Part shown: positions 14,636 to 24,332 of the stretch, piece by piece | How the letters are laid out: the number at the start of each line of letters is the position of its first letter | How positions within the stretch are numbered: the stretch's first letter is position 1 | Assembly: GCA_964423185.1 (NCBI GenBank) | Contig: CAYRDK010000005.1 | Location: 115,930 to 179,929 of the forward strand | Length of the DNA: 64,000 nt | Reading direction: 5' to 3' | From: an uncultured Planctomycetia bacterium | Lineage (GTDB): Bacteria > Omnitrophota > Gorgyraeia > Velamenicoccales > Velamenicoccaceae | Notes under the pieces: model-generated | Database searches by the model: none | The model's input: only the letters and a program-made list of their open reading frames with translations | What the model was told of the DNA's origin: nothing | Made by a program: the position numbers and the translations under genes

Positions 14636-14869
14636 TCAGCTAAGAACTTCAATAGTTTTATGATGGGAATGCTCCCCCCTGATAATTACAATAGAACTCT
14701 TACTGACACGATAATACCGGGCGAGCATATCTACAAGGGCCTTATTGGCTTTACCCTTCTCAGGCGCAACCGTCAAATATACTTTTAATAATCCGCCTTC
14801 TTCTTTGACCTGATTACGGGAAGACTTGGGGACAACCTTAACTTTAATCAACATTTTGGAAACATTCAC
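14636..14869 (-). CDS. DUF167 (YggU) family protein
   Basis: VKVVPKSSRNQV…L.VYLTVAPEKGKAN.AL matches the family. Confidence 0.75.
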   Translation of the reverse strand: MNVSKMLIKVKVVPKSSRNQVKEEGGLLKVYLTVAPEKGKANKALVDMLARYYRVSKSSIVIIRGEHSHHKTIEVLS

Positions 14870-16032
14870 AATTCCTGATCAATGGCCTCGGGTTCTTCCA
14901 GCTTAATCTGAACAATGCCGTCTTTTTCCTGCCGCAGCTCTTCGATCTTCTTCAACTGTTTATCCAGCTGATTTTTACGCGTTGTACATAGTTTTTCATA
15001 CTCTTCCTGGGCCTCATCAATCTTTTCCCCTATCTTATCCAATGAAGCACAAAATAAAAAATATTGTTTCTCAAAAGAAGCCAAAACATCCAAAATCCTG
15101 TGAGCTGTACGCTCAAGGTTAAAATTATCAACGGCCTGGCGGATAACAGCCAAAATAGCGAATAAAGTCAACGGAGAACAGAAAATAACCCGTTGTTTCA
15201 TCGCCTCATCTAAAACAGACCTGTCATTTTCATTAACAAAAGCATAAACTTGTTCATTAGGAATAAAAACAATCACGTATTCCATAGTCTGATGCTCGGG
15301 ATCTATATAATCTCTCGTCGTAACTTCTTTAATACGATTTTTCACATCGCGCAAAAATTGCTCTTTATAAGCCTGTTTTTCCTGATCCGCTTGCGCTTCA
15401 AAAAAACGCAAGTAGTTATCCAAGGGGAATTTTACATCCATATTAACTCGCAGGCCCTTCGGCAGAAAAAAAGTATAATCCGGCCTTCCAGCCCCTTGAG
15501 CCTTCTGTTTGACATAATTAACGCCTTCGATAAAACCGGCCATGCGAAGCACATCTTCAGCCATCCGTTCACCCCATTGCCCTCTAGTCTTCGTATTAGT
15601 CAAAGCCATCTTAAGCTGTTGGGCCGTTTCCTGCAACTTGGACGTTTCCTGGGCCATCTGGCCCAATCCTAATGACAACTGGGCAAACTTATTTTCTCTG
15701 TCTTTCTCTAAAGACTTCATCAAATCCTTAACCTTCTCCAACTCCCCTCTCATATCGAAAACAGACTGATCAATCAGCTTCTTCTTGCCTTCTAAATCCT
15801 TATCAACGGAGAGCGACAAGGTATAGAGCTTCTCCTGCGCCAATTGCAGAAAATGCTCGCTGTTTTTCGACAAAGCCTCATAAGACAAACTGGCAAAAAC
15901 CCCTTTAAGTTTATCCACCGCGTCACCCATCTGCTTATCCGATTCAGCGGTAAGTTTTCTTTTTACGGAGAAGACGATAAAAAACACTCCTAAACCCAAT
16001 ATTAATCCGACTAACAACATAATATAATTCAT
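14866..16032 (-). CDS. rmuC: DNA recombination protein RmuC
   Basis: An N-terminal TM segment is followed by a coiled coil, then TRGQWGE…RPDY…DVKFPL…VIVFIPNE. Confidence 0.85.
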   Translation of the reverse strand: MNYIMLLVGLILGLGVFFIVFSVKRKLTAESDKQMGDAVDKLKGVFASLSYEALSKNSEHFLQLAQEKLYTLSLSVDKDLEGKKKLIDQSVFDMRGELEKVKDLMKSLEKDRENKFAQLSLGLGQMAQETSKLQETAQQLKMALTNTKTRGQWGERMAEDVLRMAGFIEGVNYVKQKAQGAGRPDYTFFLPKGLRVNMDVKFPLDNYLRFFEAQADQEKQAYKEQFLRDVKNRIKEVTTRDYIDPEHQTMEYVIVFIPNEQVYAFVNENDRSVLDEAMKQRVIFCSPLTLFAILAVIRQAVDNFNLERTAHRILDVLASFEKQYFLFCASLDKIGEKIDEAQEEYEKLCTTRKNQLDKQLKKIEELRQEKDGIVQIKLEEPEAIDQEL

Positions 16033-16139
16033 ATACTTTGCCTTCCTTTTAGCCGGAATGGCTACCTATCCATTAATACACAATCTTATTTCCCTTGCCG
16101 GTCTCATTATATCCACCTTAAAAGAATTTGTCATGGATT

Positions 16140-16522
16140 TTAATACTGGCATTGAAATAGCACATATTTCCTAACCATGCGACAAGGACGGTACGACTCT
16201 TTGGCAAGGCGCATCCCCTCAACACCTAAATCCTGCTGGCGGTTTATATAGATATACTGCGATGGCAGGGAAGAAACAAACAAATTATTAACCATCTGAT
16301 AAATGCCGACAAATTGCCCATTAGCCTTCTCTATTCGGCAATGCACAATAGAAATTCATCTAACATGAAAAGTTCAAACTGATAAACCTGAGGCCAGGCA
16401 AAAATATTGGTAAACGTCAATTCCGATACCTCAGGAGGGATTTTTTTTACACACCGGTCAAAGAAAGGCTTATCCGAAAGCTCAATCGGCCTTTTCTGCG
16501 GAAATACAGGAATAGGCTCCAT
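16140..16522 (-). pseudogene. Decayed DUF2156 (MprF C-terminal-like, aminoacyl-lipid synthase fold) remnant
   Basis: ORF 16331-16522 carries the N-terminal motif LTFTNIFAWPQVY. ORF 16140-16346 carries the C-terminal motif NRQQDLGVEGMRLAKESYRP…KY. They are in different frames, about 130 aa in total, versus about 290 aa in my recollection of the family. Confidence 0.5.
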
Positions 16523-17375
16523 CTATATCCAGCCCCTTTTTCTCTAAATAACGGCCTCTTAAGATTGTCTTATAAGCTAGTTCGCAAACATGTCTCCGCT
16601 GCATCCTTCTACTAAAACTATCTTCTATATCAGGCAGTTTCAAACAAGGGTGAACCTGAACAATAACTTTGATAGACCTGCATGTCAAAAGATTAAAAAA
16701 ATGATCTATAAATGTCATATCGCCGTACCAGTAAATCATATCCCTATTATCAGCCGCCACAGAAAAACCATCCACGCTTCGATAAGATAAACTAACCGGT
16801 ACAACACTGGCCCCGACAGCTAAAGGCGCCTCAAAAAAAGTCGCCACAAAAGGAAGCAGCCGATCCCCATTGGAAGAGGTACCTTCTGGAAAATACAACA
16901 CATTCCCCCCTGCCCCAAGCGTCTCAGCCATTTCCTGAATCGCCCCTAAAAGATAACCCTTATGATTCCTGTCAACAAATAATGTCCCTGATATCTCCGT
17001 CATAAAACCAATCAAAGGCCATTTTTTAAGTTCCGTCTTCGTGACATACACAACCGGAAACAAAGCGCCTAGAATAAAACCATCCAGATAACTGAGGTGG
17101 TTACTGACAAAAAATTTCCCGCAACAATCAACTTTAAGGCTTGAAATATCCCCCTTCACCTCTATTTTGATACCCATTAAAAATACAAGGCAACGGGCGA
17201 ACAACTGAGTCAATTTCGTTGTCAGGCTCCTCCTGCGGGGAGCTTTATAAAAAACAAAACAAAAACGCAATACAACAGCTATGAATAAATAAGAAAAAAA
17301 ACACGCGAAACAAGCCGCGAGTTTTAAGAAAGCCTTCAAGTATCTCAAAAAAGAGAGCGCCCTGTCATGCTTCAT
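16482..17375 (-). CDS. Lysophospholipid/lyso-aminolipid O-acyltransferase (PlsC/OlsA-like)
   Basis: It has an N-terminal TM segment, the HX4D motif NHLSYLDG, and FPEGTSS. Confidence 0.8.
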   Translation of the reverse strand: MKHDRALSFLRYLKAFLKLAACFACFFSYLFIAVVLRFCFVFYKAPRRRSLTTKLTQLFARCLVFLMGIKIEVKGDISSLKVDCCGKFFVSNHLSYLDGFILGALFPVVYVTKTELKKWPLIGFMTEISGTLFVDRNHKGYLLGAIQEMAETLGAGGNVLYFPEGTSSNGDRLLPFVATFFEAPLAVGASVVPVSLSYRSVDGFSVAADNRDMIYWYGDMTFIDHFFNLLTCRSIKVIVQVHPCLKLPDIEDSFSRRMQRRHVCELAYKTILRGRYLEKKGLDIDGAYSCISAEKAD

Positions 17376-18129
17376 AAGAAAAAAAGTTATCGAGCCCGAG
17401 CCGTTTTAAAAAAACCGCATTGATTTCACTTATTTTCAACATCATAAAAAAATCAACTGTCCCAAATTCATAATCTAAAATCGGATCACTGCAAACAACC
17501 GCCCCCAGTTTTAAATATGACCGGACAAGAGCCGGAATTCTGGACAAGATATCCTTTTCCTGCCCAATGATGTCAATATCAATCTTAAGGCCGAAAATCT
17601 CGCGCCCCTGCCTGGGCTTAACTAAAAAAGCATCTTTAGCGCCATGTTTAATTTTAAGTAAACGGTATATTTTGCTGATCTCAAGAAGATCTGTCGTATA
17701 AACACTGGAACAACCGATGATATATTTTACATCATTGGCTTTTACATATTCCAAAATGGCGCGCCAAAGCAGGATAACAACAGCACCTTGACGATAATCC
17801 TTGTGAACACAAGAACGCCCTAATTCTAGAAAGTCCCCCGCATTGCTTTTAATCTTGCTAAGATCAAACTCGTTTTCTGAATAAAAACTGCCGCCGTTTT
17901 TTAATTTTTTCCCCAAAAGCAAACGATATGTCCCAACAACCTCTTCTTTTTTTCTATCGATGATTATAATATGATCACATATGGCGTCATACTCATCTTC
18001 GTCAAGGCCCGAAGCATAAGACTGTTCCAAGCCTTTCTGAAGCTCTATGTTAAAGACTTTAAAACGAAGGCGCTTTGCCGAATCGACCTCTTCTCTACTC
18101 TGCGCAAACTTTACAAGAAAATCATCCAT
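17365..18129 (-). CDS. GNAT-type N-acyltransferase of the OlsB/GlsB ('hemolysin-like') family
   Basis: AKRLRFKVFNIEL…DEDEYDAICDHIIIID…VVGTYRLL is the typical family N-terminus. It overlaps the downstream acyltransferase by 11 nt. Confidence 0.75.
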   Translation of the reverse strand: MDDFLVKFAQSREEVDSAKRLRFKVFNIELQKGLEQSYASGLDEDEYDAICDHIIIIDRKKEEVVGTYRLLLGKKLKNGGSFYSENEFDLSKIKSNAGDFLELGRSCVHKDYRQGAVVILLWRAILEYVKANDVKYIIGCSSVYTTDLLEISKIYRLLKIKHGAKDAFLVKPRQGREIFGLKIDIDIIGQEKDILSRIPALVRSYLKLGAVVCSDPILDYEFGTVDFFMMLKISEINAVFLKRLGLDNFFSYEA

Positions 18130-18205
18130 TATTTTTTCTGTTAAAAAAAGCGGCTGCCAGGCTATCTATATATTCAGTAAACACAAGAACTAAACCGAAA
18201 GCTTA

Positions 18206-18715
18206 TTAATCCTTAAGATTTGGAAACCAGCGAGGAGTTTTTTGGAAATACAGAACATAATCAACGCCGAATCTTTTTTCCAAAGATTTCTCTTCAATTA
18301 AAATAAACTGACGCATAACCAAAAAAATTAAAAAAGCGTAAATCAAAAGCCCAAAAGAACCAAAAAGAAAAGCACTGCCGAAAAGAAATAGAACCGTACC
18401 AACGACCATGGGATTTCGCACAAACTTATAAGGCCCGCAAATAACAAGCTGTTTTGGATGGGCAAAAGGCAGAGGCGTCCCTTTGCCTTCATTGATAAAA
18501 AGCATAACACACCATACCGCAAGCATATAACCGGCCGCCGAGAAACCAACGCCGACCAACCGCAGCGGCTTCATGTAAAAACTACCTAAAAAAGGGTCCA
18601 CAAAAGTCTTGATTAAAAAAGGAAACAACGCCCACAAACACATAATAAAAGACCCTCCGATAATAAAAGTTTTTAATGTATTTATTAAATCTTCACGTGA
18701 TTTTATTTTAAGCAT
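18206..18715 (-). CDS. ICMT/PEMT-family membrane methyltransferase
   Basis: It is polytopic, with GPYKFVRNPMVVG and EEKSLEKRFG. I set the start at MLKIKS because GGGGA lies 4 nt upstream; the ORF track starts at 18763. Confidence 0.7.
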   Translation of the reverse strand: MLKIKSREDLINTLKTFIIGGSFIMCLWALFPFLIKTFVDPFLGSFYMKPLRLVGVGFSAAGYMLAVWCVMLFINEGKGTPLPFAHPKQLVICGPYKFVRNPMVVGTVLFLFGSAFLFGSFGLLIYAFLIFLVMRQFILIEEKSLEKRFGVDYVLYFQKTPRWFPNLKD

Positions 18716-18854
18716 ATTTCCCCTTGATATTACATAATAGAAATTGAATGGCCAAAAAAACAAACATCATTACAAATGCATTTTTTCAGGCAATTAAAAT
18801 TACAACATCTTAAAAACACTGAGAATTCGACACTGCCCTATTCTCTGATACGCG

Positions 18855-19055
18855 TTAAAACTTTAAAACATTCGCGGCCTGTTCGCCTTTTTCACTCTGG
18901 ATAATCTCAAACTCAACCGCTTGCCCCTGCTGCAGTGTTTTATACCCCTCACCTTGCACAGCGCTATGATGCACAAAAACATCTCTCCCGTCCTCTGTGT
19001 TAATAAAACCATAACCCTTCTGATTACTAAACCACTTTACCGTACCCTTTGCCAT
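18855..19055 (-). CDS. csp: Cold-shock protein
   Basis: [18 protein letters not shown]…VFVHHS contains the RNP1 and RNP2 motifs. Confidence 0.95.
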
Positions 19056-19187
19056 CTTGCTTCCTCCATTTTGAGTAAATTTAAAAAACCGTAAAGCCTT
19101 TAATACACTCTACGGTTCTTTAATTGCTGCTTATATGCCTTATCTGATCAACCATGCTATTCAACATCAAAAAATCATTATAAAAAA

Positions 19188-19343
19188 TTACTTCTTATCC
19201 CTGATTTCTCTCAAAATCTGAATCATAACTCTTTGGCGCACAAGCATAACTAGAAGGCATGAAAAAAGCATAAGAATAAAAATAATTTTAATCGCGAACA
19301 ATAAATAAACCCCGCTAACATCCAAAAGTGTAATATCGTACAT
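19188..19343 (-). CDS. Possible 51-aa single-TM peptide
   Basis: Not in the ORF track. GGGGG lies 5 nt upstream of the ATG. The translation is MYDITLLDVSGVYLLFAIKIIFILMLFSCLLVMLVRQRVMIQILREIRDKK. It lies 18 nt after the cyclophilin stop. Confidence 0.3.
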   Translation of the reverse strand: MYDITLLDVSGVYLLFAIKIIFILMLFSCLLVMLVRQRVMIQILREIRDKK

Positions 19344-19361
19344 CTTACCCCCTTTTTTTTG

Positions 19362-19922
19362 TTATGACTTCAAATAAGCACGAACAATCTTCTGTTCTCT
19401 CAAAGGCTTATCACCATCGCCAACAGCGGTTTTTGAGATCTTTTCAACAACGTCATAACCTCCACACACCTCTCCAAAAATGGTATGATGCATATTCAAC
19501 CAGGGTGTCGCGGCAACCGTAATAAAAAACTGGCTCCCATTAGTTCCGGGGCCGGCGTTAGCCATTGCTAAAATACCAGGTTTATCAAACTCTATGTTCT
19601 GCGATACTTCATCTTCAAACGGCGTTCCAAATAAAGATTCGCCGCCTCGGCCTGTTCCAGTCGGATCCCCTCCTTGAATCATAAAATCCTTAATGACCCG
19701 GTGAAAAATGATGCCGTCATAATACCCCTTTTTCACCAGCCCTATAAAATTTTCGCATGCTTTTGGCGCAACATCGAAAAAAAGTTTTAATTCAACAACC
19801 CCGGACGTCGTTTCTAAAATAACCTTTGTTTCTGCCACATCTTCCCCCTCTCCCATAAGATGCTGATAGCCTGCCAGCATTAAAAAAAACCAAGCAAAAA
19901 AAACAATGCGCCTAACTTTCAT
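19362..19922 (-). CDS. Cyclophilin-type peptidyl-prolyl isomerase, secreted
   Basis: It has a signal peptide plus FHRVIKDFMIQGGDP and GSQFFIT. Confidence 0.9.
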   Translation of the reverse strand: MKVRRIVFFAWFFLMLAGYQHLMGEGEDVAETKVILETTSGVVELKLFFDVAPKACENFIGLVKKGYYDGIIFHRVIKDFMIQGGDPTGTGRGGESLFGTPFEDEVSQNIEFDKPGILAMANAGPGTNGSQFFITVAATPWLNMHHTIFGEVCGGYDVVEKISKTAVGDGDKPLREQKIVRAYLKS

Positions 19923-19934
19923 TAAGCTCCCCCT

Positions 19935-20306
19935 CTACTCTTGAGCGTTAATAAAGATATGATCAAGCTCTTCCAGCTTCACAGGTTTATTGATAAAAGA
20001 GTCTCCGCCCAACTGGCGCACAACAGTGTCATTAACGGCCGGAAAACCTGAGATTAAAACAATCTTCGCGTTTGGATTTCTAGTGCGCGCAATCGGAATT
20101 AACTCCAGGCCTGTCAAATTAGGCATACTGCAATCCAATAAAAAGAAGTCAAAAGCGTCCTTCTCAATCGCCCTCTTAGCCTGTTCACCGTCAAAAACAA
20201 CGACAACCTTGAACTTTCTCCTTTCAAGGTATTTTTTTAAATACAGACAAATATCTTCTTCGTCATCCGCTATCAAAACTCTTTTCGAACGTTTAAAAAA
20301 AATCAT
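19935..20306 (-). CDS. Stand-alone response-regulator receiver domain
   Basis: The DDEE acidic pocket, the phospho-acceptor in LLDCSMP, and a K in INKP are present. Confidence 0.85.
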   Translation of the reverse strand: MIFFKRSKRVLIADDEEDICLYLKKYLERRKFKVVVVFDGEQAKRAIEKDAFDFFLLDCSMPNLTGLELIPIARTRNPNAKIVLISGFPAVNDTVVRQLGGDSFINKPVKLEELDHIFINAQE

Positions 20307-20370
20307 TTCACTTATTTTACCTTTTTAAAAAAATTAAATCAATTCTTTTGTTGGCTCAAAGCTCAACCGC

Positions 20371-21525
20371 TCAACTGACCCAATCCTTAAGCCTTACCGC
20401 CTTGTTAGAAAACAAATACAACTGTAACGCGGCTAAAACAGCAAAGTTATAAAAACAGAACTCATAGGGGATAAAAAACATCCTGAAGAAACTGCTCCTT
20501 TTCATTCCGGTCTTTTTTAAGAATAAACCCAAGAGCGCTAAACTGTAAAAGATTATCTGGATAAGAAAGAAGAGAAGGTAAAAACCTAGCTGACTAAAAA
20601 GAAAAATATTCGTAATAAAAGCACAAATAACACAATAAGGAATAATCAGATCCAAAACATCATGGGAAATAAGCTGAAAAGCCACTTTCGTCTTAAAAGG
20701 GTTCAAAGATTCTAAAAATAAAGAGAAAATCTGATAACTGCCAATATATTTTTTAACAATAGAGGCGAAACTGTCCTCCTGTTTACGCGGAACAAGGCTG
20801 TGTGTCCTGGCTAACGGTTCAAAAACAGCACGTTTCTTTAACATAATAACATTCATAGCCATATACACGTCATCCAAAAGGAGGTGTTCCGGCATATACC
20901 TAAACAGGTCCTTTCTGACAGCATACATCCCGCCCTTTGTTACAAACGTAGAATCAACGGCGTTCTCTAATTTTCTAAGAACCTTATCTTGCGTATCATA
21001 AAACAAGAGTTCAGCTTCTCTGGACGCCTCCCGGGGTTCGTCATATACAACCTCTCCTAAAACGCAACCAACGCTCTCATCTGCAAAACAGGCGATAAGC
21101 TCTTTCAAAGCAGTACGCTCTATCCTCTGCATGGCATCAACAATAACAAAAATTTCTCCTCTGGCATCTCTAACAAGTTTATTAACCATCGCATTTTTAC
21201 CAATCCTCTGGAACGCGACACCATAACGTATCTTGTTTTCATCAGCCAGCTGCTTAACGATTCTGTAGGTTTCATCTGTTGAACCGTCACAACCAACGAT
21301 GATTTCCATCTTATCGCGCGGGTAATCAAGATGCGTAATATGAGTTACTTTTTCTATAATGCTTTTTTCTTCATTGTAAGCTGAAATAAAAATGGAGATA
21401 AACGGATAGATCTCTTTCTTGCGCACCGGATTTTCCATTAGCGAGAAAAAAAGGGCCATAGAAAAAGGGTATAAGATATAACGCCAGGCGATAACAGCTA
21501 TGCTAATAAACAGTAACCATCTCAT
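20371..21525 (-). CDS. Membrane family-2 glycosyltransferase (processive-synthase-like)
   Basis: ISAYNEE, DGSTDET and VDAM are present, with C-terminal TM helices. Confidence 0.8.
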   Translation of the reverse strand: MRWLLFISIAVIAWRYILYPFSMALFFSLMENPVRKKEIYPFISIFISAYNEEKSIIEKVTHITHLDYPRDKMEIIVGCDGSTDETYRIVKQLADENKIRYGVAFQRIGKNAMVNKLVRDARGEIFVIVDAMQRIERTALKELIACFADESVGCVLGEVVYDEPREASREAELLFYDTQDKVLRKLENAVDSTFVTKGGMYAVRKDLFRYMPEHLLLDDVYMAMNVIMLKKRAVFEPLARTHSLVPRKQEDSFASIVKKYIGSYQIFSLFLESLNPFKTKVAFQLISHDVLDLIIPYCVICAFITNIFLFSQLGFYLLFFLIQIIFYSLALLGLFLKKTGMKRSSFFRMFFIPYEFCFYNFAVLAALQLYLFSNKAVRLKDWVS

Positions 21526-21530
21526 TTTAA

Positions 21531-21666
21531 CATTGCCTCCAATCAGGTAATTCTTCTTTACAATGTTAATCCTTGCGTCTGCTGAGAAAAGTTTATGTGG
21601 AAACTTTTCCAGCGGTTAGATGCAAGGGTTAACTGCTCATTGCCTCCAATCAGATAGTTCTTCTTT
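21531..21666. repeat. 29-nt direct repeat (27/29 identical) flanking a long imperfect hairpin
   Basis: cattgcctccaatcagGtaAttcttcttt at 21531-21559 repeats as cattgcctccaatcagAtaGttcttcttt at 21638-21666. The hairpin arms are 21565-21594 and 21601-21633. Confidence 0.5.
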
Positions 21667-21668
21667 GG

Positions 21669-22961
21669 CTAAAGCTTAACCACATTCGGAGCTTTAAATT
21701 TCACAGCATTTCTTGTATCCAGAAGAAGCCTGGCATGCCGGACAATCCATTCATAATCATAACAATTATGATCTGTCACAACAACCACGCAATCACTTTT
21801 ATTTAAAAGAGACGGGGTAAGCTTAACACTCTTCATGTTAAAATGATCCTTCGCGACTTCAGGGACAAAAGGATCATTATAAGACACGACAGAACCTTTC
21901 TCTTTAAGAAAATGCATGATCTCAAAAGCGGGAGACTCCCTGTAATCGCTGACGTTTCTTTTATAAGCGACACCTAATATAAGAATTTTAGCATTTTTTA
22001 AGCTTTTACCTTTATTGTTCAACGCATCCGCCACTTTATAAGCAACATGCTGCGGCATCATACTGTTAACACGGGCGGCTAAGTCAATAAAGCGCGCTTC
22101 AAATCCAAAGAATCTAGCTTTCCATGACAAATATAGGGGATCAATAGGAATACAGTGCCCGCCCAAGCCGGGGCCGGGATAAAAAGGCATGAAACCGAAC
22201 GGCTTCGTTGAAGCCGCATCAATAACTTCCCAGACATCAATCCCCATACGGTCGCACATCAAAGCCAGCTCATTGACTAAACCAATATTAACAGCCCGAA
22301 AAGCATTCTCGAGGAGTTTAACCGTTTCCGCCACTCTCGTTGAAGAAACGGAATAAACAGATTCCATAATCAGCCCATAAAACTTTTGGGCAACATCAAC
22401 ACAAGCAGGCGTAACTCCACCGACAACTTTTGGAATATTTTTTGTGCGAAAACTTCTGTTGCCGGGGTCAACGCGTTCAGGAGAAAAAGCTAAATAGAAA
22501 TCTTTACCGGCCTTAAACCCTTTTTTTTCAAACATAGGAAGCAAGACTTCCTCTGTTGTTCCCGGGTATGTTGTGCTTTCTAAAATAATCAACTGCCCCT
22601 TCTTGAGATAACGCGCGATTTGCGACGCGGCGGCAACGATATAAGAAATATCGGGCTCTCTGGTTTTAGACAAAGGTGTCGGGACACAGATATTAATTGT
22701 ATCAACACTTTTTAGAATTGAAAAATTGGCGGTTGCCGACAATAACCCCTTAGAGACACACCTGGCCAGTTCTTCCGCGTCAACATCCTGAATGTATGAC
22801 CTCTTTAAATTAACAGCATCAACTTTACCTTTATCTAAATCTATACCGACAACCTCTATGCCGGATGCGGCAAATTCAATCGCCAAAGGCAACCCAACAT
22901 ACCCAAGGCCAACCACCGCGCTCTTAATTTTCTTCTCCTGAATCTTTTCAACCAAAGTCAT
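21669..22961 (-). CDS. Nucleotide-sugar 6-dehydrogenase (UDP-GlcNAc/UDP-ManNAc dehydrogenase-like)
   Basis: VGLGYVGLPLA is a Rossmann motif and GGHCIP contains the catalytic Cys. Confidence 0.85.
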   Translation of the reverse strand: MTLVEKIQEKKIKSAVVGLGYVGLPLAIEFAASGIEVVGIDLDKGKVDAVNLKRSYIQDVDAEELARCVSKGLLSATANFSILKSVDTINICVPTPLSKTREPDISYIVAAASQIARYLKKGQLIILESTTYPGTTEEVLLPMFEKKGFKAGKDFYLAFSPERVDPGNRSFRTKNIPKVVGGVTPACVDVAQKFYGLIMESVYSVSSTRVAETVKLLENAFRAVNIGLVNELALMCDRMGIDVWEVIDAASTKPFGFMPFYPGPGLGGHCIPIDPLYLSWKARFFGFEARFIDLAARVNSMMPQHVAYKVADALNNKGKSLKNAKILILGVAYKRNVSDYRESPAFEIMHFLKEKGSVVSYNDPFVPEVAKDHFNMKSVKLTPSLLNKSDCVVVVTDHNCYDYEWIVRHARLLLDTRNAVKFKAPNVVKL

Positions 22962-23004
22962 ATTCTTCTCCTTATTATAAAGGCATAAAACTAATCACGC
23001 GCGT

Positions 23005-23364
23005 TCAATCAAACATCTTGGGCACAAAAATCATCCCGCCAATCACAAAAGCATTTAAAGCAGCAATAAAAACTCCTCCTGCCGCGATATCTTTTAATAA
23101 TTTTACATTGGGATGAAACTTGTCCCCGTGGACAAAATCAAGCAAAAGCTCAAAGGCGGTATTCGCCGCTTCAGCAATCATAACCAAAGCAATAGCAAAT
23201 ACAACAAAAATAAATTCAATTTCACTGACTCGCAACAGAAAACATAACACGACGGCCACAAGGGCAAAAAAACAATGAACCTTCATATTGCGTTCAGTTT
23301 TAAAAACAAACTGCAACCCTTCAAAGGCCAATCTAAAACTCTGAATTGTCGTCCTTTTATACAT
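23005..23364 (-). CDS. dgkA: Diacylglycerol/undecaprenol kinase (DgkA family)
   Basis: It has three TM segments plus AEAANTAFE and KDIAAGGV. Confidence 0.8.
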   Translation of the reverse strand: MYKRTTIQSFRLAFEGLQFVFKTERNMKVHCFFALVAVVLCFLLRVSEIEFIFVVFAIALVMIAEAANTAFELLLDFVHGDKFHPNVKLLKDIAAGGVFIAALNAFVIGGMIFVPKMFD

Positions 23365-23423
23365 GGCTTCTTTTGTTATATCGCAATTAATGCTTTTTTG
23401 CTACATTTTTTAGAAAGGCTTTT

Positions 23424-24332
23424 TTAAAGAATCTCAACCATTTTATCAATGGCGGCACGCGCCTTAAGCCTGATTTCATCAGAAACCCTTACTTCCGCCC
23501 TCATGTCGCGTAAAGATAGGTAAACCTTTTCCAAAGTTATACGTTTCATATTAGCGCAAACAGCATTTTCCGAAGCAGGATAAAACTTTTTATCCGGATT
23601 GTCTTTAGCTAGCCGGTAAATAATACCAACTTCCGTACCGACAATAAACTCCGTATCACGCGAGGCCTTCGCGTAAACACACATTTTACCGGTAGATAAA
23701 ACTTCATCAGCAAGTTCAATAACCTCCGGGCGGCACTCCGGATGAACCATAATTTTCGCTCCAGGATGCTGGCGTATCTTTTTTATAATATCTTCGGGCT
23801 GAATTTTGACATGAGTCGGACAATGCCCATCCCATGAAATAAGGCGGCGGCCCGTCTTTTTTGAGACATAGTCTGCCAAATACTTATCCGGTATAAAAAT
23901 AATCTCATCAGAACCTTTCAATTTAGACACAATCTCAACAGCATTTGTTGATGTGCAACAAATATCTAATTCAGCTTTCACATCGGCCGATGTGTTCACA
24001 TAACCAACAACAACCGCTTTAGGATGCCGCTCCTTTAACTCGCGCACATCCTCAGCAGAAATCATATTGGCCATAGGACAGCCGCCTAAAGGGTCAGGGA
24101 TCAAAATCGTCTTGTCCGGGCACAAAATTGAAGCTGTTTCCGCCATAAAATAGACGCCACAAAATACAATGATGTTTTTTTTGGACTTTGCCGCAATACG
24201 GCTCAGCTCTAAAGAATCACCGACATAATCGGCAATATCCTGGACCTCTCCTGCCTGATAATTATGAGCCAGGATAATAGCGTCACGTTCTTTTTTAAGG
24301 CTCTTTATTTTTTCGATTATTTCATTTGGCAT
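23424..24332 (-). CDS. nadA: Quinolinate synthase
   Basis: ILAHNYQ…VQDIADYVGDS, MAETA and HPEC are present. Confidence 0.9.
   Translation of the reverse strand: MPNEIIEKIKSLKKERDAIILAHNYQAGEVQDIADYVGDSLELSRIAAKSKKNIIVFCGVYFMAETASILCPDKTILIPDPLGGCPMANMISAEDVRELKERHPKAVVVGYVNTSADVKAELDICCTSTNAVEIVSKLKGSDEIIFIPDKYLADYVSKKTGRRLISWDGHCPTHVKIQPEDIIKKIRQHPGAKIMVHPECRPEVIELADEVLSTGKMCVYAKASRDTEFIVGTEVGIIYRLAKDNPDKKFYPASENAVCANMKRITLEKVYLSLRDMRAEVRVSDEIRLKARAAIDKMVEIL

Follow-up and report, generated by a model that had tools for sequence, protein, structure and literature searches.

A 64,000-nucleotide (nt) stretch of contig CAYRDK010000005.1, from an uncultured bacterium of the phylum Omnitrophota (hereafter, the window), carries three consecutive genes encoding an integral-membrane methyltransferase of the PEMT/ICMT superfamily, an OlsB-like N-acyltransferase and an OlsA-like O-acyltransferase. 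This PEMT-OlsB-OlsA trio is constant in one Omnitrophota clade and specific to it. In the reading that we favour with guarded confidence, the three genes work as one unit, or operon, for a phosphorus-free acyloxyacyl aminolipid with a methylated head group, the acylation being predicted from family membership and the methylation from gene linkage only. The three open reading frames (ORFs) given in a preliminary description of this region were all found at the same coordinates on the minus strand:

18206-18715, minus strand: PEMT/ICMT-superfamily S-adenosylmethionine (SAM)-dependent integral-membrane methyltransferase, 169 amino acids (aa); first gene of the trio; Pfam PEMT
17365-18129, minus strand: OlsB-like GNAT N-acyltransferase, 254 aa; Acetyltransf_5 and NCBIfam OlsB models
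16482-17375, minus strand: OlsA-like PlsC-family O-acyltransferase, 297 aa; Pfam Acyltransferase, NCBIfam OlsA models and HX4D motif

The acyltransferase pair and the membrane methyltransferase

Judged by their E-values, the domain assignments lie far beyond chance. The OlsB-like protein matches Pfam Acetyltransf_5 (PF13444; E 1.9e-32, 112 bits for a cut-off of 22.4), and its best NCBIfam models are two OlsB models that both align over the full length, NF052554 (179.4 bits, E 1e-52) and NF052555 (161.2 bits, E 3e-47), while the GlsB model reaches 28 bits. The OlsA-like protein matches Pfam Acyltransferase (PF01553; E 5e-21, 75 bits) and resembles the PlsC structure 5kym of the Protein Data Bank (PDB; E 1e-9). 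Its best NCBIfam models are two OlsA models, with 136.3 and 126.3 bits, the E. coli-type PlsC model PRK15018 reaching 50.3, and it carries both the HX4D motif (HLSYLD, residues 93-98) and the FPEGT motif (residues 162-166) of the PlsC family. No solved structure was found for the OlsB clade by sequence search. The OlsB-type and PlsC-type calls of the preliminary description are upheld by these matches, as are the HX4D motif and the 11-nt overlap of the two genes (17365-17375). This overlap or abutment of stop and start is kept in relatives (11 nt in locus L004, 4 nt in L005, L008 and L089, and a 1-nt gap in L007), which we count in favour of a common unit. The overlapping ATG of OlsA is also the start conserved in L004; the NCBI call of the same protein has 288 aa and starts 9 codons later, at Leu10 of the window translation.

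As in the OlsB/OlsA ornithine-lipid pathway of the Sinorhizobium, Rhodobacter and Brucella type, a GNAT gene is followed here by an overlapping gene of the HX4D PlsC family, and the best models are full-length OlsB and OlsA models, but the scores reach only about half of the equivalog cut-offs (179 vs. 350 bits for NF052554, whereas NF052555 has a cut-off of 320, and 136 vs. 300 for OlsA). Because of these scores, neither orthology nor an ornithine head group is established. The two proteins are family relatives rather than proven ornithine-specific orthologues, and the sequence does not reveal the head group, as had already been stated. The missed cut-offs, together with a weak FeeM match (23 bits, below the cut-off of 27), would also suit a pathway in which the product of the GNAT enzyme is a FeeM-type N-acyl amino acid, either soluble or secreted, the PlsC-like enzyme being a general lysophospholipid acyltransferase, with no membrane aminolipid formed. 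We hold this to be highly improbable, since the alignments to the OlsB models are full-length with so low an E-value, the OlsA models score about 85 bits above PlsC, and the classic translationally coupled OlsB/OlsA arrangement recurs, with an adjacent OlsA gene, in 11 of the 17 more distant OlsB loci with enough downstream flank.

The methyltransferase ORF was listed with 185 aa (18206-18763, from a TTG at 18763). The 169-aa form starts from the ATG at 18715, which is the start common to all its homologues. The protein scores above the cut-off of Pfam PEMT (PF04191; 46.1 bits for a cut-off of 25) and below that of Pfam ICMT (PF04140; 18.2 bits for a cut-off of 24). In NCBIfam, its similarities are to ICMT, LmtA and MddA, all of them weak and restricted to the last ~80 residues, i.e. 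the C-terminal SAM-binding part: the ICMT equivalog NF040696 reaches 31 bits for a cut-off of 160, and the other two models 27 for 325 and 15 for 270. An ICMT/PEMT fold is certain from the alignment, the clade profile and the structural model. The clade alignment has invariant motifs in the C-terminal half (GxG, GPYxxxRNPM, EE and FG..Y..Y); the clade profile matches archaeal and insect ICMT structures (4a2n, E 5e-13; 5vg9; 5v7p); and the AlphaFold model (pLDDT 87.6), a bundle with four long helices, retrieves from the PDB with Foldseek the ICMT structures 4a2n and 5v7p as best matches, followed by related sterol reductases (probability 1.0, with modest TM-scores of 0.48-0.60). The polytopic ICMT/PEMT-family methyltransferase that had been reported directly upstream of the pair is thereby confirmed. 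Its fold and C-terminal SAM motifs (RNPM..G, EE, FG..Y) are common to ICMT/Ste14, eukaryotic PEMT/Opi3, LmtA and MddA, but the window enzyme lies far under every NCBIfam cut-off of the superfamily.

PEMT carries out N-methylation of phosphatidylethanolamine and OlsG that of ornithine lipid, whereas ICMT carries out O-methylation of the alpha-carboxylate on an N-acylated prenylcysteine. The candidate substrate here would likewise have a lipid tail and a free carboxylate on an N-acylated amino acid. By analogy, two chemistries would be plausible for an aminolipid substrate, N-methylation of the side chain or O-methylation of the free alpha-carboxylate. Pfam favours PEMT over ICMT and the weak NCBIfam matches are to O- and S-methyltransferases, which points neither way.

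The orthologues of the methyltransferase are 55-81% identical, and those with a phylum label belong mostly to Omnitrophota/Omnitrophica, so that the names of the homologues assign the DNA to Candidatus Omnitrophota. Between the window and L004, the methyltransferase is the best conserved protein of the trio (80.6% aa identity, vs. 74.4% and 70.1% for the other two) and is therefore under purifying selection.

Linkage of the trio across relatives

The neighbourhood was surveyed from both sides, with the best 80 relatives of the methyltransferase in species-representative genomes and with the best 80 metagenome loci for OlsB, the OlsBs of the clade forming 15 clusters at 95% identity. The fetched loci were scanned with hidden Markov models (HMMs) built from clade proteins. 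In all 13 clusters (out of 15) that have upstream flank, the gene directly upstream of OlsB encodes a clade-type methyltransferase and shares its strand. The spacing between the two genes runs from -20 to +125 nt. In comparison, no PEMT match was found in the 41 loci of more distant OlsB homologues, and no DUF2156 gene in the 17 of these loci with enough downstream flank. From the methyltransferase side, OlsB, OlsA and DUF2156 genes lie nearby in only three Omnitrophota-type loci (L009-L011, 57-61% identity), and the 77 other relatives (many phyla, 36-48% identity) have no OlsB or DUF2156 gene nearby; another relative, at 39% identity, is also unlinked. These 77 relatives align mostly over roughly the C-terminal two-thirds of the query (residues ~50-168), and the N-terminal half of the methyltransferase is clade-specific. 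Moreover, no clade-type copy was found away from OlsB/OlsA in the surveyed loci. Ca. Velamenicoccus archaeovorus, whose genome is complete (CP019384.1), has the trio too, as part of a full locus in the order given below. It is the constant linkage within the clade, with its absence from the distant OlsB loci and from the 77 relatives, that makes the trio specific and constant.

In every relative with enough flank, the gene order is PEMT, OlsB, OlsA, an optional pair of ABC ATPase and ABC-2 permease genes, DUF2156 and RmuC, a larger conserved locus that the preliminary description had not noted, nor had it noted the Omnitrophota origin of the DNA. Two loci with a full Omnitrophota-type cluster, L008 and L010, come from bins that their depositors labelled 'Deltaproteobacteria' and 'Planctomycetia'; judging by the gene order and the 57% identity, these labels are probably binning or taxonomy artefacts.

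A loss of the genes was found in L176 (GCA_043819345.1; L176:6752-7035). This close relative shares the synteny of both flanks, but its cold-shock gene is followed directly by an intact DUF2156 gene of 304 aa. Just upstream of the latter, the tail of OlsA is still recognizable (its last 28-43 codons; tblastn E 1.5e-9), while no trace of PEMT or OlsB was detected in L176 by tblastn. A single deletion took PEMT, OlsB and most of OlsA, leaving DUF2156 and the other flanking genes intact.

Several observations weigh against a common unit. The conserved gene order reaches beyond the lipid genes on both sides (GT2, response regulator and PPIase genes ... RmuC and thioredoxin genes), which makes adjacency weaker evidence than in genomes with more rearrangement: the position of the methyltransferase gene could be inherited synteny, and the loss in L176 a single accidental deletion. 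Both acyltransferases miss their equivalog cut-offs, and the match of the methyltransferase to characterised enzymes (ICMT, LmtA, MddA) is weak and confined to its C-terminal part, which leaves its substrate open. In a consensus scan of the window, promoter and terminator sites were no more frequent than in shuffled sequence. Finally, our literature search found no lipid data and no aminolipid genes reported for Omnitrophota.

Part of this evidence would suit a reading in which OlsB and OlsA make an ordinary, unmodified aminolipid and the PEMT-fold enzyme is a mere syntenic neighbour acting on an unrelated substrate, such as phosphatidylethanolamine (giving N-methyl-phosphatidylethanolamine or phosphatidylcholine), the lipid A phosphate (as LmtA), a thiol (as MddA), or a prenylated or other carboxylate. 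The long synteny, the 77 sampled generic PEMT/ICMT relatives of other phyla that lack a nearby OlsB, and the restriction of the NCBIfam similarities to ICMT, LmtA and MddA all speak for it. We nevertheless consider it rather unlikely, given that the methyltransferase gene precedes OlsB immediately and on the same strand in every cluster where this can be seen, with a spacing that goes down to a 20-nt overlap, that the clade has an N-terminal half of its own, and that clade-type copies were found only beside OlsB/OlsA. The link that the preliminary description suggested between the methyltransferase and the aminolipid pair gains real support from the comparison (13/13 clusters vs. 0/41 distant loci, and the joint loss in L176), whereas methylation of the lipid itself is deduced from that linkage only.

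The DUF2156 pseudogene and the surroundings of the trio

Directly after OlsA, the window holds the remains of a gene that were not described in the preliminary description of 16140-18715:

16140-16522, minus strand: DUF2156/LPG_synthase_C pseudogene remnant; two out-of-frame ORFs (16331-16522 and 16140-16346)

These ORFs are the N-terminal (16331-16522) and C-terminal (16140-16346) remnants, in different reading frames, and the second matches the C-terminal end of Pfam LPG_synthase_C (profile positions 209-297). L004, whose methyltransferase is 81% identical to that of the window, holds an intact DUF2156 gene of 301 aa (L004:8162-9067) at the equivalent position. Using local blastn, window 16604-16350 aligned with L004 8081-8334 and window 16334-16129 with L004 8873-9078, so that at the junction (near 16334-16350) 15 nt of the window face 538 nt of L004. 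This difference implies a frameshift and a deletion of ~0.52 kb, the length of which is not a multiple of three. An HMM of the clade, built from five intact orthologues (293 positions), matches the window only at positions 1-57 and 230-291, and the complete double-GNAT domain (~290-300 residues) was not found there. The region 16140-16522 is, on this comparison, a pseudogene of the stand-alone DUF2156 family (similar to the C-terminal part of MprF), and the gene is dead in this genome. The OlsA gene of the window has lost the stop position of L004 and reads 16 codons beyond it (16482-16530), so that its end and the beginning of the DUF2156 remnant overlap by 41 nt.

In their identity to L004, the remnants (74.5-75.8% nt, 65-77% aa) equal the intact neighbouring genes (73-80% nt, 70-81% aa). 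Compared with the split from the L004 lineage, the deletion is therefore recent. The contig of L173, from a separate ENA assembly, matches window 16215-17699 at 99.93% identity, without gaps and across the junction; a one-off misassembly is therefore unlikely, although the samples possibly come from one study. Another ENA contig, L001 (14 kb), is identical to the window over 16921-24129 and ends inside OlsA at 16921. With an assembly break so close to the DUF2156 deletion, the population might be heterogeneous at this locus.

The L004 orthologue of DUF2156 matches PDB entry 2hqy, a stand-alone DUF2156 protein, over its whole length (E 4e-53); the entry was deposited as 'conserved hypothetical protein'. 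The segment lost from the window includes a basic stretch of L004, KYDGKRNLIRSF, which is aligned to 2hqy. In DUF2156 proteins, a positively charged helix binds aminoacyl-tRNA (PMC7334510), and by position the KYDGKRNLIRSF stretch should be this helix. The remnant and its intact orthologues share Pfam LPG_synthase_C with MprF and other aminoacyl-phosphatidylglycerol synthases. Unlike MprF, however, the DUF2156 gene stands alone, without a membrane flippase domain; in relatives an ABC-2 pair lies beside it, whereas in the window it is a pseudogene. DUF2156 follows OlsA in 9/9 clade clusters with enough downstream flank, and the ABC-2 pair was found in 7/9 of them and in three shorter clusters, being absent from the window and from L004. 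In four loci the pair is placed as follows:

L005:8124-10798, L007:8585-11396, L008:6577-9240 and L089:6126-8918: ABC ATPase and ABC-2 permease genes immediately before a stand-alone DUF2156 gene

By analogy, the ABC-2 pair and DUF2156 would together resemble a split MprF (synthase plus flippase). The constancy of DUF2156 and the frequency of the ABC-2 pair, together with the description of DUF2156 domains as aminoacyl-tRNA-dependent lipid aminoacylases (PMC7334510), would argue for a single ancestral pathway made up of PEMT, OlsB, OlsA, ABC-2 and DUF2156, in which the aminolipid is methylated, aminoacylated from aminoacyl-tRNA and exported, the window having a crippled version. Against it, the losses are reciprocal, the window being the mirror image of L176: the trio is kept and DUF2156 lost in the first, and the reverse in the second. 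In addition, an inserted AhpC gene parts OlsA from the ABC genes in L007 and L089, stand-alone DUF2156 homologues of other taxa (40-44% identity) have no adjoining aminolipid genes, and our literature search found no paper linking DUF2156 to aminolipids. We regard such a single pathway as very unlikely, and a five- or six-gene pathway including the DUF2156 and ABC genes was downgraded because the losses are reciprocal and the genes are not linked in taxa outside the clade. The trio behaves as a single unit from which DUF2156 can be separated. We conclude that DUF2156 and the ABC-2 exporter form a separate, dispensable module; the reciprocal decay, of the trio in L176 and of DUF2156 in the window, shows the locus to be accessory and modular.

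The window has ~40% GC and a strongly negative GC skew, and nearly all its long ORFs are on the minus strand. Upstream of the trio lies a spacer, defined by its coordinates:

18716-18854, minus strand: intergenic spacer of 139 nt, from the cold-shock gene to the methyltransferase gene

This spacer would be the likely place for a promoter of the trio, inferred from position only; the consensus promoter scan found nothing convincing in it. Three terminator-like matches were found by the consensus scan, all within coding sequence, and none in the 76-nt spacer between the methyltransferase and OlsB genes, for a scan that itself performs no better than on shuffled sequence. The Rfam scan of the entire window gave no matches. 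On the other side of the locus, a match to the sigma-70 consensus (11/12; ATGACA, 17-nt spacer, TATAAT) lies at 16106-16134 on the minus strand, between the DUF2156 remnant and rmuC (14866-16032). This site is a candidate promoter of rmuC and probably marks the 3' limit of the lipid locus.

Between the PPIase and cold-shock genes, an ORF of 51-52 aa without Pfam match (~19188-19343 in the window, minus strand) is called in the twin contig L001 and in three relatives (L004:5377-5532, L005:5430-5588, L176:6262-6417). Further upstream, at 20371-23364 on the minus strand, are genes for a membrane GT2 glycosyltransferase, a member of the UDP-glucose/GDP-mannose dehydrogenase family and a DgkA-type diacylglycerol kinase. 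The GT2 gene has a marginal match to Glyco_transf_21 (23 bits for a cut-off of 21.7), and Ca. Velamenicoccus has the same order of GT2, response regulator, PPIase and PEMT. Under phosphate limitation, the GT21 enzymes of rhizobia produce glucuronosyl and glucosyl diacylglycerol. The genes at 20371-23364 could therefore serve glycolipid synthesis, as a module adjoining the aminolipid genes.

The predicted pathway and its place among aminolipid systems

In the proposed aminolipid pathway, both acyltransferase steps are predicted from the membership of the OlsB-like and OlsA-like enzymes in their families. The OlsA-like HX4D enzyme would esterify a second fatty acid onto the 3-hydroxyl, as expected from its family. 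The PEMT/ICMT-fold enzyme, embedded in the membrane, would then methylate the head group of the aminolipid with SAM within the membrane, a step suggested by gene linkage. As for the amino acid used, OlsB-family enzymes are not limited to ornithine: lysine lipids are noted in a review (PMC12971839), and a glutamine-lipid pathway is described in PMC6298996.

The precedent for a SAM-dependent methyltransferase encoded in an aminolipid operon is OlsG (Sinac_1600) of Singulisphaera acidiphila, which belongs to an olsH-olsG-olsI operon in a planctomycete without OlsB (PMC12493201). The partners of OlsG are, however, the GH3-type OlsH and the alpha/beta-hydrolase OlsI instead of OlsBA (PMC12493201), and the review cited above calls OlsG 'related to phospholipid N-methyltransferases' (PMC12971839). 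No homologue of the window methyltransferase bears an OlsG-type name, and no OlsG model is among its NCBIfam matches. OlsG is presumably a soluble Rossmann-type enzyme like the bacterial PmtA. If so, the window enzyme, with its polytopic ICMT/PEMT fold, would be at most a functional analogue of OlsG, without homology; on this assumption, we doubt that the two are kin.

To our knowledge, OlsG is the only aminolipid head-group methyltransferase known, and it comes from a different pathway. We also know of no characterised member of the ICMT/PEMT superfamily that acts on an aminolipid, and our literature search found no PF04191 enzyme reported to do so. More speculatively, the PEMT/ICMT-fold enzyme may have been recruited to the OlsBA operon of Omnitrophota to act as ICMT does, on the alpha-carboxylate, giving a methyl-esterified aminolipid; in a milder version it would N-methylate the lipid, in convergence with OlsG. 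We think this unlikely enough to be put forward only as a suggestion. If true, methyl esterification would remove one negative charge from the lipid, and our literature search found no report of such a lipid class.

Modifications of aminolipids alter membrane charge and stress resistance. Omnitrophota is a phylum of mostly uncultured bacteria with very small cells, for which our literature search found no membrane characterisation. From an OlsBA operon that includes a PEMT/ICMT-fold enzyme throughout the clade, a new modified lipid is predicted for this phylum. The very large bacterial PF04191 family is annotated by analogy only, as 'isoprenylcysteine carboxyl methyltransferase family protein'. 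If the prediction is true, the aminolipid would be the first substrate for a branch of this family.

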